64,000 nucleotides of DNA from an uncultured Candidatus Saccharibacteria bacterium (GCA_965230955.1 OZ246404.1:685426-749425); one strand, 5' to 3'. Positions 330-46,333 are shown, counted from the stretch's first letter. The notes: generated by a model not told the origin, from the letters alone. Made by a program: numbers and translations.

Positions 330-760
330 GTACCCAAGAAGACCTGTAAGCCGAGTTCTGTTCCCGCCATAGGCGGGAGACGACCATCTATCTGGGCCGG
401 GCATTACTGCTCGGCTCAAGCTGTCGGATTCTATACCCGAAGGCACAGAGTCCACCGACATTACACCAGGTAGGGTTTGTAGCCGGCGGCTGTCACCAGC
501 CGCGGAGAGGGGTCTTACTCCCTCACTTTTCATCCTTACCCTGTGCCAAATGGCACAAGGCGGTATAGTCTCTGTTACACTTTCCCTGGGCTTCGCCGTT
601 TAAAAAGGCATATGCACTTTTCAAATGACTGCTCCCGCTGGACGTTATCCAGTACCACTTTCACCCTTAATCGGGTTTGGTGCTCGGACTTTCCTCTCCA
701 CCCAGCCCCAAAAAGGAGCGTAGTGGAGCGATCATCCGGTAATCTTGGGTAGTGAAATCA
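330..760 (-). ncRNA. rnpB: RNase P RNA (bacterial type A-like)
   Basis: The minus strand contains GAGGAAAGUCCGAGCACC (P4 5' strand; E. coli has GAGGAAAGUCCGGGCUCC). It also has AAGGGUGAAAG (P10/11 region), ACAGAGA and ACAGAACUCGGCUUACAGG (P4 3' strand; E. coli has ACAGAACCCGGCUUAUCGG). These are in the correct order and spacing. Boundaries are approximate. Confidence 0.75.
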
Positions 761-41867: not shown

Positions 41868-41912
41868 CGCCAATTAAAAAGGTGTGGCCTTTTGGCCACA
41901 CCTTTTTAATTG
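41868..41912 (+). terminator. Intrinsic terminator
   Basis: Sequence aaaaaggtgtggccttttggccacaccttttt. Confidence 0.75.
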
Positions 41913-41918
41913 GCGAAA

Positions 41919-42581
41919 TTATTTCCCCTGCAGCAGATCCATAATCTTCGGCACCATTTCATCCGGTCCGGCCGTCGCTCGAAAAACTTTGACCAGCCCC
42001 TTTTTATTGTAATACATAATAATCGGGTCGGTCAGCTTGTGATAAAACATCAAGCGCTGTTTGACCGTTTCTTCCGTGTCGTCACTGCGTTGCATGAGCT
42101 TGCCGCCGCATTTATCACACTGGCCGTCTTGTTTCGGCATTAGAGCCGGCATCTTTATCCCCTGTTCGTCAATTTCAATGACGTTGTATATTTCTCCGCA
42201 TTTTTCACAAACGCGACGCGCCGTGATTTTTTTGATCAAAATATTTTCGGGTAAATCGACATGCAAAACAGTATCAATCGGGGTAATTTCTTCCAAAATT
42301 TTAGCCTGCTCCAGATTGCGCGGAAACCCATCCAGAATAAAACCCTTTTGAGCATCGGGTTTTTTCAATCTCTCTTTAATCATGCCCACAATCATCTCAT
42401 CAGGCACCAATTTCCCTTGGTCCATGAATACTTTGGCTTCGCGCCCCAATTCGTTCCCCTTCTTTACTTCGGCTCGCAGCAAATCACCGCTGGAAATATG
42501 CGGAATGCCGAGCTTCGGACCGATTTTTTTGGCATACGTCCCCTTGCCCACTCCCGGGGCACCGATGAAAATCAGTTTCAT
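41919..42581 (-). CDS. adk: Adenylate kinase (zinc-lid type)
   Basis: P-loop GAPGVGKGT. Zinc-lid cysteines CEKCGEIY...CDKCGGKL. Confidence 0.92.
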   Translation of the reverse strand: MKLIFIGAPGVGKGTYAKKIGPKLGIPHISSGDLLRAEVKKGNELGREAKVFMDQGKLVPDEMIVGMIKERLKKPDAQKGFILDGFPRNLEQAKILEEITPIDTVLHVDLPENILIKKITARRVCEKCGEIYNVIEIDEQGIKMPALMPKQDGQCDKCGGKLMQRSDDTEETVKQRLMFYHKLTDPIIMYYNKKGLVKVFRATAGPDEMVPKIMDLLQGK

Positions 42582-43839: not shown

Positions 43840-44664
43840 TTATTCCAAGTCTACAGTAATATCCCCATCTTGATCAGTCCGCCTGATGACAATCCCCGCT
43901 TGTTCCACCCGCTGAAGTGTCTCACTGGCCGGATGGCCAAAGCGATTGTCAGCGCCCACAGAAAAAATCACTTCTTGCGGCGACACGGCCTTGATCCAGG
44001 CGGCACTGGTGGAATTTTTACTGCCGTGATGACCGGCTTTCAGTATATCGGCCGCGACATTCGACCGGTGATCGAGCAGTTGTTCCTCCACATCAAAACC
44101 GGCATCACCGGATATAAGGATCGACTTTTTCGGAGAATCCACCCGAACCACCACCGAGGTATCATTAATATTTTTCGGCGTTTGACCGCGCCACTGATCT
44201 TCTTCGAGTGGAAATAAGACAGACAGACGAGCCGAGCCGATTTCAAACTGATCACCCGCGTTCGCTATTTCTTCCGTTGCTCCTTCCCGGGATAATGAAT
44301 CCAGGAAGGTCTCAAAATCCCGGCCCTTGTTCAGAGCTCCCGTCCAGACAAAAGTTTTCACGTCAAATCGATCCAGGACATCAATCAGGCCGGCAAAATG
44401 ATCGCTGTCAGCGTGAGTCAAAATAACCACTTCTATCTCTCGGTCAAAATAAGGCATGGCTTCGCCTAATTTTTCAACGATAGTACGCGACGGACCGCCA
44501 TCAACCAATATCTGGGTCGTCCCCTTTTGGATCAGAGCGGCGTCCCCTTGCCCGACGTCAAAAAAAGTCAGCGTAGCGGGTATTTGTGACTGGCAACCGG
44601 CTACTGCTACCAAGACGGCAGTAATGCCGATGGCGACTAAACTATAAAGTAAATTCTTTTTCAT
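43840..44664 (-). CDS. comEC: ComEC/Rec2 metallo-beta-lactamase domain lipoprotein. It corresponds to the C-terminal part of ComEC but is encoded separately.
   Basis: MBL motif ILTHADSDHFAG. The lipoprotein signal ends in AGC. Confidence 0.75.
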   Translation of the reverse strand: MKKNLLYSLVAIGITAVLVAVAGCQSQIPATLTFFDVGQGDAALIQKGTTQILVDGGPSRTIVEKLGEAMPYFDREIEVVILTHADSDHFAGLIDVLDRFDVKTFVWTGALNKGRDFETFLDSLSREGATEEIANAGDQFEIGSARLSVLFPLEEDQWRGQTPKNINDTSVVVRVDSPKKSILISGDAGFDVEEQLLDHRSNVAADILKAGHHGSKNSTSAAWIKAVSPQEVIFSVGADNRFGHPASETLQRVEQAGIVIRRTDQDGDITVDLE

Positions 44665-44676
44665 GAATTTCTAGTC

Positions 44677-44705
44677 TTGACAAATAGAAATAATTGGCTT
44701 AATAT
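44677..44705 (+). promoter_or_regulatory. Strong sigma70-like promoter TTGACA, 17 nt, TAATAT with no downstream ORF
   Basis: Sequence cTTGACAaatagaaataattggctTAATAT. Confidence 0.5.
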
Positions 44706-44711
44706 CCTAAA

Positions 44712-44889
44712 TTGGATCGTCAGTCAGTATTTGGCATAAACCTCATCAAGCGCCGGCAGCAATGGAGTAGTCTAGGTTGTCCACCGACATCCCAAGCATT
44801 CCAGATTCCGGCCCAAGACGGAGCAGCCATCTAAAGACTTTCTGATCCCGCCCTCGACTTCTACGGAAGTTCGAGGGCTCATTTTTTTT
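44712..44889 (+). ncRNA. Candidate small non-coding RNA of about 175 nt. It is an orphan promoter-terminator unit and its function is unknown.
   Basis: It is bounded by the promoter at 44677-44705 and the terminator at 44850-44889. It has no ORF (only ATGGAGTAG). Confidence 0.35.
44850..44889 (+). terminator. Intrinsic terminator
   Basis: A 12-bp GC-rich hairpin gccctcgacttc-tacg-gaagttcgagggc followed by tcaTTTTTTTT. Confidence 0.75.
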
Positions 44890-46333
44890 CCCGGCTCTGC
44901 TTTTTCATCATTTCCCACGCCAAAACAGAAATCACAATAACCATATAGACAGCTAAAACTAACCACCGCCCTTCACCGGCTATCTGCATTGACACCCCGG
45001 GGAGGGACGCTCCCCATTTTACCACTCTTATCCCGTACGTCAGAATCAGCCAAGCCGGATAAGACGCGATCTCCCCCAGCGGCACCGCCACCAGTCCGGC
45101 CAGAGCGACGATAAAAGACGCCGTCATCGCCATCGGAATCGAGGGAAGCAAGATGACATTGATGATTGGCGCGAGCGGAGATACCTGACCGAAATATACC
45201 AAGCTAATCGGAAAAGTCATGGCATTGGCGGACAAAGTCGCCGTCAGGGATTCCCGTAACATCAAAACTTTTGGAACTTTTATCAGATATTTTTCCAACA
45301 GCGGTCCGACATAAACCAATCCCAACACGGCCATAAAAGACAGCTGGAAGCCAATATCAAATCTCAGCACCAACGGATTTATTGCCACCATAATAACCGC
45401 CGTGGCTACCAAGACATTCCGCACGCCGGAAGTTCGACCGCTCTGTTGCGCCAATAACACCAATCCTCCCATCAGCGCCGCACGCACCACCGAGGCTTGC
45501 GCCCCCGTGATCAAAACAAAAGCCGTAATTCCGATTACCGCGATGAAAAAAGACCAGCGCCGACCGGCCCATTTGGTCGCACTGATCATCAAGGTCGCCA
45601 CAATGGTAATGTTATAACCGGAAACCGCCATGACATGCATCGTTCCGCTATCCCGAAAAGCTGATTGGGTCAATTCTCCCACGGCAGATTTTTGACCGAG
45701 CAATATTCCCAAAGCAAAACCCGCTTCCGGCTCCGGCACGGTTTTTTGAAGTGATTGGGCCAGATACTTTTTGGCAACCAAAAGTGCCGCCAGTACCGGA
45801 TTACCTCCCCGGCCGATCACTTCAATCGCCGGCTCATACATAGTTGAATAAATGCCGTACCGCGCCAAATAGTTTTGATAATCAAATTCGGCGAAATTTT
45901 CCGGAGCCTGGAGCTTCCCGCCAAACTCGATTTTCTGTCCATACTCATAAGTCGGATAACGCGGCACCAAAACCAAAACCTTGCCCGCCGCCGCTTCTCC
46001 CTCTGCCTGTTCAACCGCTACGATGAGTTTAGTCCGCGCGGCTAGTTCTTCCGGTTCGGCCGCAATCGTCCCGGTTAATTTTACCTTTTGATCGTTCCAA
46101 TTCCCGACATGATTATCCGGCAGATCTCTCGCCTGACACAGGCGAATCATTCCCAAACCAATAAACAATATTATCAAACCCATCATTAGGCACTTACTAT
46201 TTATCAGGGCCAGGAAAAACCCCGCCGATAATAGTGCCACGGGCCAATACCAATCCGGTTCCCAAAAAGATGCTATTCCCACCCCCGAGAGGAAAGCCGC
46301 TCCGGACCAGAAGAAAATTTTTCCGCGAGACAT
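44879..46333 (-). CDS. comEC: ComEC/Rec2 competence membrane channel domain (DUF4131 plus competence domain)
   Basis: Polytopic membrane protein with the ComEC core. Confidence 0.8.
   Translation of the reverse strand: MSRGKIFFWSGAAFLSGVGIASFWEPDWYWPVALLSAGFFLALINSKCLMMGLIILFIGLGMIRLCQARDLPDNHVGNWNDQKVKLTGTIAAEPEELAARTKLIVAVEQAEGEAAAGKVLVLVPRYPTYEYGQKIEFGGKLQAPENFAEFDYQNYLARYGIYSTMYEPAIEVIGRGGNPVLAALLVAKKYLAQSLQKTVPEPEAGFALGILLGQKSAVGELTQSAFRDSGTMHVMAVSGYNITIVATLMISATKWAGRRWSFFIAVIGITAFVLITGAQASVVRAALMGGLVLLAQQSGRTSGVRNVLVATAVIMVAINPLVLRFDIGFQLSFMAVLGLVYVGPLLEKYLIKVPKVLMLRESLTATLSANAMTFPISLVYFGQVSPLAPIINVILLPSIPMAMTASFIVALAGLVAVPLGEIASYPAWLILTYGIRVVKWGASLPGVSMQIAGEGRWLVLAVYMVIVISVLAWEMMKKQSREKK

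Follow-up and report, generated by a model that had tools for sequence, protein, structure and literature searches.

A candidate antisense small RNA gene between the channel and nuclease halves of comEC in a narrow clade of Patescibacteria

Introduction

Structured antisense RNAs start pairing with their targets through loop-loop contacts in the CopA/CopT system of plasmid R1 and in the RNA I/RNA II system of ColE1, and IsrR of Synechocystis is a chromosomal cis-antisense RNA. Systems of these types control replication, toxin or photosynthesis genes, and we know of none that is linked to comEC. The processing of a bicistronic mRNA can also be directed by antisense pairing, as GadY does for the gadX-gadW mRNA. 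In Escherichia coli, GadY base-pairs with the gadX mRNA that it overlaps and makes that mRNA more stable (Opdyke et al. 2004, as cited in PMC7373196), and double-stranded RNA cut by RNase III has been detected at the gadX-gadW locus (PMC7373196). In Legionella, RocR and RocRp silence comEA, comF, comEC, comM and radC, RocR being an RNA of 66 nt that acts in trans on 5′-UTRs together with the chaperone RocC (PMC6744872). RocR therefore sets a precedent for the control of competence genes, comEC included, at the RNA level.

The Patescibacteria (CPR) are very small bacteria, most of them uncultivated, with conserved com genes for DNA uptake, and to our knowledge almost nothing is known about their regulatory RNAs. 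In one cultivated member of the group, deletion of comEC abolished detectable natural transformation (PMC10633639). Here we analyse a 64,000-nt stretch of DNA (the window) from an uncultivated member of the Patescibacteria, where it is placed by its ComEC-N protein, and describe a candidate small RNA (sRNA) unit between its two comEC genes. Like GadY, the candidate has its own promoter and terminator opposite a two-gene unit, lies in the spacer of that unit and overlaps the 3′ end of the upstream gene. It differs from GadY in having no sequence or structure similarity to it and no Rfam match, in being longer (about 175 nt), in folding as one long rod and in belonging to the Patescibacteria. 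With the classical antisense RNAs it shares a stable structure, loops complementary to those of the target, its own promoter and intrinsic terminator, and a size within about 70-180 nt. Unlike RocR, which is not encoded at comEC and acts in trans, it sits at the comEC locus itself, and the two RNAs have no sequence relation.

Results

In the window, the channel half of ComEC is encoded by comEC-N (44879..46333, minus strand), with a DUF4131 and a Competence channel domain, and the nuclease part is encoded separately by a gene for an MBL-fold (Lactamase_B) protein (43840..44664, minus strand). The candidate unit lies on the plus strand, opposite both of these neighbours; the last 11 nt of comEC-N overlap the 3′ end of the sRNA, and the MBL start is 13 nt away from the sRNA −35 element. 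The contigs carrying the closest ComEC-N and MBL homologues showed a conserved order, nrdD-nrdG-DUF167-comEC-N-spacer-MBL-MGDG synthase-adk. A promoter consensus scan listed no minus-strand site within the comEC-N/MBL spacer and no minus-strand terminator was seen there, so transcription of comEC-N probably continues across the sRNA gene into MBL, and the two genes would share one read-through transcript. The N-terminus of the MBL half (43840-44664, minus strand), MKKNLLYSLVAIGITAVLVAVAGC, reads as a lipoprotein-type signal with a lipobox-like VAGC, which suggests that this half may be exported and membrane-anchored on its own.

A preliminary description of the window had reported, on the strand opposite the comEC genes, a sigma70-type promoter (TTGACA, 17 nt, TAATAT; 44677-44705) and an intrinsic terminator (12-bp hairpin plus T8; 44850-44889), and had proposed that they delimit an independent small-RNA gene, whose product might regulate the comEC junction as an antisense RNA. 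The promoter was borne out by direct reading and by the consensus scan, the terminator by reading and by the minimum-energy fold, and the opposite orientation by the position of both neighbours on the minus strand. Conservation in relatives, which the same description had put forward as a check, was also found: −35 and −10 elements at a fixed distance of 17 nt, a rod-shaped fold and a hairpin with a T-run all recur, and they support the proposed gene, whose transcription is a prediction.

The −35 hexamer TTGACA (44677..44682, plus strand) lies within a conserved block, CTTGACAAA, and the −10 hexamer TAATAT (44700..44705, plus strand) follows 17 nt after it; both were identified by sequence reading and by the consensus scan. 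Judging from the position of the −10 element, transcription is predicted to start at 44712..44714 on the plus strand, just before a conserved GGATC (44714-44718). The promoter agrees with the consensus at 10 of 12 positions, a match reached at four sites in 10 kb, this one included. The scan found 28 promoter-like sites against 15.3 expected. Taken alone, the promoter and the terminator of the window are unremarkable and the promoter by itself does not go beyond chance; it is their conservation that gives them meaning.

The block CTTGACAAA is identical in six of the seven full-length lineages, and the bases of the 17-nt spacer vary. All six lineages with the block have exactly 17 nt between it and a TAnnAT-like −10 element, the hexamers of the homologues being TATGAT, TATTAT, TATTCT or TATAAT. 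The remaining lineage, L002, lacks the TTGACA −35 element and carries TATAAT with only a weak −35-like hexamer. A GATC is found 8-10 nt past the −10 element in six lineages. On the other strand, the distance from the complement of the −35 element to the MBL start is variable (13-17 nt) and the intervening Shine-Dalgarno sequences also differ; hence the conservation of the CTTGACAAA block is not due to the MBL ribosome-binding site. The gene for RNase P RNA of the bacterial class A (331-747, minus strand; Rfam, 201 bits; promoter 785-757, terminator about 300-270) served as an internal control. It has TTGACT (785-780), a 17-nt spacer and TATGAT (762-757), its RNA starts about 10 nt later, and it ends in a hairpin and a T-run, the same design as that of the candidate unit. 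At the level of sequence prediction, the candidate possesses its own promoter opposite the target genes, as cis-encoded antisense sRNAs do.

The intrinsic terminator (44850..44889, plus strand) consists of a 12-bp GC-rich hairpin with one bulged base (44850-44878), of sequence GCCCTCGA-C-TTC / TACG / GAAG-TTCGAGGGC, equally written GCCCTCGA(C)TTC-TACG-GAAGTTCGAGGGC, followed by T8 (44882-44889). The hairpin was not listed by the terminator scan because of the bulge, and it is present in the minimum-energy fold. Counted from the predicted start at about 44712 to 44889, the unit measures about 175-178 nt. The TCA at 44879-44881, between the hairpin and T8, corresponds to the comEC-N stop codon read on the other strand, and T8 falls within the last comEC-N codons. 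Every lineage has, on the sRNA strand only, a GC hairpin with a T-rich run behind it, and the hairpin sequences differ among lineages yet stay paired. On the comEC strand an A-run precedes the hairpin and no U's come after it. The strand predicted to be transcribed thus carries the GC hairpin and U-run of a rho-independent terminator. In L065, L068 and L069 a second hairpin and T-run (for instance GGCCCUGGGGGGC UUUUUUU) comes right after the first one, which suggests a tandem terminator inside the 3′ coding region of comEC-N.

The extent to which the sRNA overlaps the comEC-N ORF varies, from 11 nt in the window to 44 nt in L070, 58 nt in L003, 61 nt in L069 and about 125 nt in L002, and the tail of the comEC-N ORF is unconserved. 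From this variable overlap and unconserved tail it follows that the RNA element, and not the protein tail, is the conserved entity. The overlap with the target that is expected of a cis-antisense RNA is found over the comEC-N ORF, and it would extend over the comEC-N-MBL read-through mRNA.

We then considered the fold. The 180 nt at 44711-44890 fold as a rod plus the terminator hairpin with −63.3 kcal/mol and z = −5.8 relative to dinucleotide shuffles. The rod itself (44714..44848, plus strand) is an unbranched hairpin of 135 nt with about 41 bp and small internal loops, closed by a GGAUC/GAUCC base helix; alone it reaches −41.6 kcal/mol (z −3.4). All seven full sequences fold individually into a single unbranched rod of 117-135 nt, with z-scores of −3.4, −5.4, −2.6, −2.6, −3.8, −1.2 and −5.7. 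The most conserved internal helix has the 5′ strand CUCAUC at 44742..44747 (plus strand), pairing with GACGGAG at 44817-44823. A helix of this CUCGUC/GACGAG type recurs across the lineages, helix 3 being 97% paired. The rod ends in an apical hairpin, GGuUGUC[CACC]GACAuCC (44775..44792, plus strand), with a conserved loop motif G-Y-C-C-R; the apical loops across the lineages read GUCCACC, GUCCGCC, GGUCCAAA or GCCCACC, and the U.U mismatch of the window in the apical stem is replaced by U-A or A-U in relatives. The largest internal loops measure about 6x4, 7x1, 2x6 or 5x3 nt and have no fixed central position. In the L065/68/69 subgroup the GAUC/GAUC pairing can be imposed only at a cost of 3-6 kcal/mol, which means that the base of the rod differs slightly between subgroups.

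To count changes within the pairs, the rods of the seven full sequences were aligned rung by rung from their individual folds, giving 46 consensus pairs. Because this alignment was fitted to the minimum-energy fold of each sequence, its numbers lean towards pairing: standard pairs were formed in 95.4% of the pair cells, compared with 78.9 +/- 1.6% in column shuffles and 32-48% with slid partners, and 26 pairs were changed on both sides, compared with 13.1 +/- 2.2 in shuffles (none of 500 reached 26) and 3-5 with slid partners. The independent folds and their z-scores are the less biased evidence. Comparison by blastn gave no similarity between the unit of the window and the loci of the relatives, and sequence-only MAFFT plus RNAalifold alignments of all seven, or of four, sequences failed to reproduce the rod, its arms having diverged too far.

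Searches with covariance models linked the two subgroups poorly. A first model, R1, trained on the three sequences that are most alike, detected the L001 fragment (E 0.0025) and did not find the window RNA, even with filters off. The second model, R2, was weak; it came from the structure-guided alignment, in which N stood for each gap. When filters were off, L002, L065, L069, L068 and L074 (a stand-in for the window) came at the top with E 0.0004-0.02, and the seed loci L070 and L003 were recovered only at chance level.

The complementary strand also folds well, mean rod energies on the two strands being about −49.8 and −51.6 kcal/mol, and neither folding energy nor G-U content discriminated between them. 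The assignment of the strand rests for this reason on the promoter and the terminator. The equal stability on the minus strand could be taken to mean that the selected structure resides in the mRNA, as an intercistronic rod for processing or stability or for stop-start coupled translation, with the plus-strand signals being incidental. In the majority of distant relatives the two genes overlap or are separated by no more than about 40 nt, which suggests that translational coupling is ancestral and would fit this idea. We nevertheless regard it as quite unlikely, since it leaves unexplained both the conservation of CTTGACAAA at exactly 17 nt from the −10 element, with a GATC at the start, and the hairpin and T-run that in every lineage read as a terminator on the plus strand only, with the A-run placed before the hairpin and no U's after it on the minus strand.

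We next examined how the unit is distributed. A single-protein scan of genome contigs found no relatives, and alignment-based scans added one more close locus, L029, equal to L003 in the sRNA region, together with many distant loci without the element. The closest ComEC-N homologues are 66-68% identical to that of the window and the MBL homologues 67-76%. Besides the window, seven lineages have the unit on the strand opposite comEC, with spacers of 121-167 nt where measurable. It is full-length in L002, L003 (=L004/L029), L065, L068, L069 and L070 (=L066/L071-73), and L001 holds its 3′ half only. Relatives at 47-49% identity keep the gene order and lack the unit, their spacers measuring 27 nt (L005) and 42 nt (L076). 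The unit is also missing from L067, even though its MBL protein is the most similar found (76% identical); there, the comEC-N stop overlaps the MBL start by 4 nt (ATGA). Since L067 (470-560) retains a run, ...CCGGGAAAAAATG..., homologous to 44880-44895 of the window, the two loci differ by a clean indel, about 200 nt long, that covers hairpin, rod and promoter, and its absence from this close relative implies that the unit is dispensable. The element thus appears restricted to a narrow, roughly genus-level clade and dispensable within it, as far as the loci compared here indicate.

Many of the retrieved Patescibacteria loci (L005-L064) have ComEC split into a channel gene and an MBL gene next to it. 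Gaps between comEC-N and MBL in distant Patescibacteria are mostly −23 to +41 nt, a few loci are fused and some have inserts of 0.7-1.5 kb. The spacers of L033, L035 and L053 contained nothing similar to the sRNA. In the Yanofskybacteria loci L034 (3779-3997, plus strand) and L064, the same junction has a spacer of about 350 nt with a different insert, in which a conserved ORF of 72 aa with CxxC...C motifs lies on the comEC strand and a terminator-like hairpin comes after it. This larger spacer was considered as a form of the same RNA and rejected, as it holds the 72-aa CxxC ORF on the comEC strand.

The pattern at L067, which lacks exactly the block of about 200 nt with hairpin, rod and promoter, could also be produced by a palindromic insertion of the MITE or REP kind, functionless in itself and decaying at the comEC-N/MBL junction. 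The unit is a long, imperfect palindrome ending in GATC...GATC, and this, with an ancestral state that apparently had adjacent or overlapping genes, would agree with such an origin. The GATC...GATC that closes the rod lies inside the promoter-terminator unit, and no target-site duplication was evident at the flanks of the indel relative to L067. However, the 64-kb window contains a single copy of the unit, no further copy was found in the fetched loci, and phage and plasmid collections gave no match, which is not the multiple-copy pattern of MITE or REP elements. Moreover, lineages beyond the reach of blastn keep compensatory pairing, promoter and terminator, as a neutral relic would not. A functionless insertion is for these reasons very unlikely.

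An sRNA with targets in trans, or one that serves as the RNA component of a ribonucleoprotein, would also retain such features. The rod and its G-Y-C-C-R loop would then be a binding platform, and the position at comEC would reflect linkage only. A fold kept by compensatory changes and a conserved apical motif are not needed for pure antisense action, so that a protein partner or a role in trans might be involved, and a strong promoter and a terminator of its own are also what the housekeeping RNase P RNA gene has. Against this stand the occurrence of the unit at one locus only, always overlapping the comEC-N 3′ end, its absence from L067 and from relatives with 47-49% identity, hardly to be expected of a housekeeping RNA, and the finding of no partner or target in the DNA inspected for paralogues and trans targets (64 kb of the genome of about 1.14 Mb). 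We consider such an RNA unlikely, and prefer antisense action on the comEC genes.

Known RNA families were searched for over the same region. At the gathering threshold of Rfam 15, the RNase P RNA at 331-747 was the sole match in the whole window. At E<=10, the region 44600-44960 gave no SRP and no 6S match and only chance-level matches to snoRNA models; at E<=1, the six homologous loci gave neither SRP nor 6S; and a scan for tRNA and tmRNA (ARAGORN) returned nothing. Rod shape and similar size are common to the candidate and to SRP RNA (RF00169/RF01854) and 6S RNA (RF00013), and the GGAGCAGCC of the window recalls the AGCAGCC of SRP RNA, features that would suit a divergent SRP (4.5S) or 6S RNA of 135-180 nt. 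The preliminary description had likewise seen in a UCCGG...GGAGCAGCCA segment a loose resemblance to SRP domain IV. This resemblance did not hold, for the segment lies mid-way down the 3′ arm of the rod instead of at the apex and is unconserved in the homologues, and the GCAGCC of the window, about 30 nt from the apex and thus mid-rod, is likewise unconserved. The features that define the two families, a covariance match, a GNRA apex with the domain IV loops and a central bubble, are lacking: the apical loops are CACC, CACCGAA, CGCCGAA, GGUCCAAA(A) and CACCAC, none of them GNRA, and no rod has a large central bubble of the 6S kind (about 10 or more unpaired nt per side), the largest internal loops being about 6x4 nt. 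The RNA also evolves far too fast for SRP domain IV, having diverged beyond detection by blastn, and the locus is empty in L005, L067 and L076, at odds with the slow evolution and universality of SRP RNA. That the unit is an SRP or 6S RNA is, in our view, scarcely credible, and the scan for these and other families that the preliminary description had called for left the unit without a family.

With regard to coding potential, the same description had stated that the stretch has no ORF longer than two codons. This holds for ATG starts on the plus strand and fails for TTG starts, which open ORFs of 40 aa (44712-44834) and 22 aa; on the minus strand there is an ATG ORF of 36 aa. No ORF in the unit is conserved on either strand, as frames, lengths and sequences differ between lineages. 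Four lineages do have a GGAG-like motif 6-9 nt before a UUG or AUG at the apical stem, with peptides that begin MST(E)D or MSAED, as if a small protein were encoded. The peptides, of 10, 22, 23 and >33 aa, have however only their first 4-5 residues in common, the frames used in the remaining three lineages are others, no minus-strand ORF is conserved, and the shared residues are explained by the conserved nucleotides of the hairpin. A small protein is accordingly a most improbable product of the unit, which we continue to treat as noncoding.

Discussion

Promoter, rod fold and terminator recur in about eight lineages, and on this recurrence the unit is probably a real, narrowly distributed antisense regulator. 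Confidence differs between the parts of this reading. That a real conserved sRNA gene is present we hold to be very probable, given the signals and the fold that the lineages share. That it specifies a new noncoding RNA of about 175 nt on the plus strand, found in a narrow clade of Patescibacteria and acting as a cis-antisense RNA on comEC-N/MBL, is our preferred explanation, to which we give an even chance. The sRNA most likely represents a new RNA family, and a cis-antisense sRNA as such is a known kind, here in a poorly explored phylum.

As the sRNA gene lies inside the comEC-N/MBL pair and on the opposite strand, its RNA would be complementary at every position to the presumed transcript, over the spacer and over the final 11-125 nt of the comEC-N ORF. 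Its mode of action would be cis-antisense control of the comEC-N/MBL transcript. Both the sRNA and the complementary mRNA spacer are predicted to fold as rods with complementary loops, and from the geometry of these two rods it is conceivable that a loop-loop contact perhaps starts the pairing. A long sRNA-mRNA duplex could then be cleaved by RNase III or alter the stability of the mRNA. By analogy with GadY and with the loop-loop antisense systems, we infer that pairing would change the processing or stability of the bicistronic mRNA. Convergent transcription could in addition lessen read-through into MBL. The outcome would be that expression of the channel half and of the nuclease half, and also of the downstream MGDG-synthase and adk genes, is uncoupled or tuned.

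A bolder proposal assigns the RNA to a new structured class dedicated to the DNA-uptake machine of Patescibacteria, with the G-Y-C-C-R apical loop as a recognition site. In one version the RNA would gate the ComEC channel or the MBL nuclease, either as a mimic of double helix or while bound to a protein; in another, the unit would be a competence-silencing cassette of about 200 nt that is gained and lost, a version consistent with its absence from L067. We regard this proposal as speculative and improbable, and retain cis-antisense control of the comEC-N/MBL transcript as the working explanation.

A candidate sRNA placed between the channel and the nuclease halves of ComEC offers a concrete and testable candidate for control of DNA uptake at the RNA level in Patescibacteria. 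The promoter, rod and terminator, in seven full sequences and one 3′ fragment, also provide a seed for a new RNA family. The reach of these findings is that of a sequence-based prediction in a narrow clade, and is limited to that extent.

Two further hairpins were seen in the neighbourhood of these genes. In the window, the adenylate kinase gene (41919..42581, minus strand) has a perfect 20-bp hairpin (CGCCAATTAAAAAGGTGTGGCC TTTT GGCCACACCTTTTTAATTGGCG; 41868-41915) immediately downstream. In L068, an AT-rich hairpin of about 90 nt (1088-1180) lies between the MBL and MGDG-synthase genes; its only matches, weak and below threshold, were to microRNA models of plants and insects (E 0.0024) and, as far as the family is concerned, are surely due to chance.
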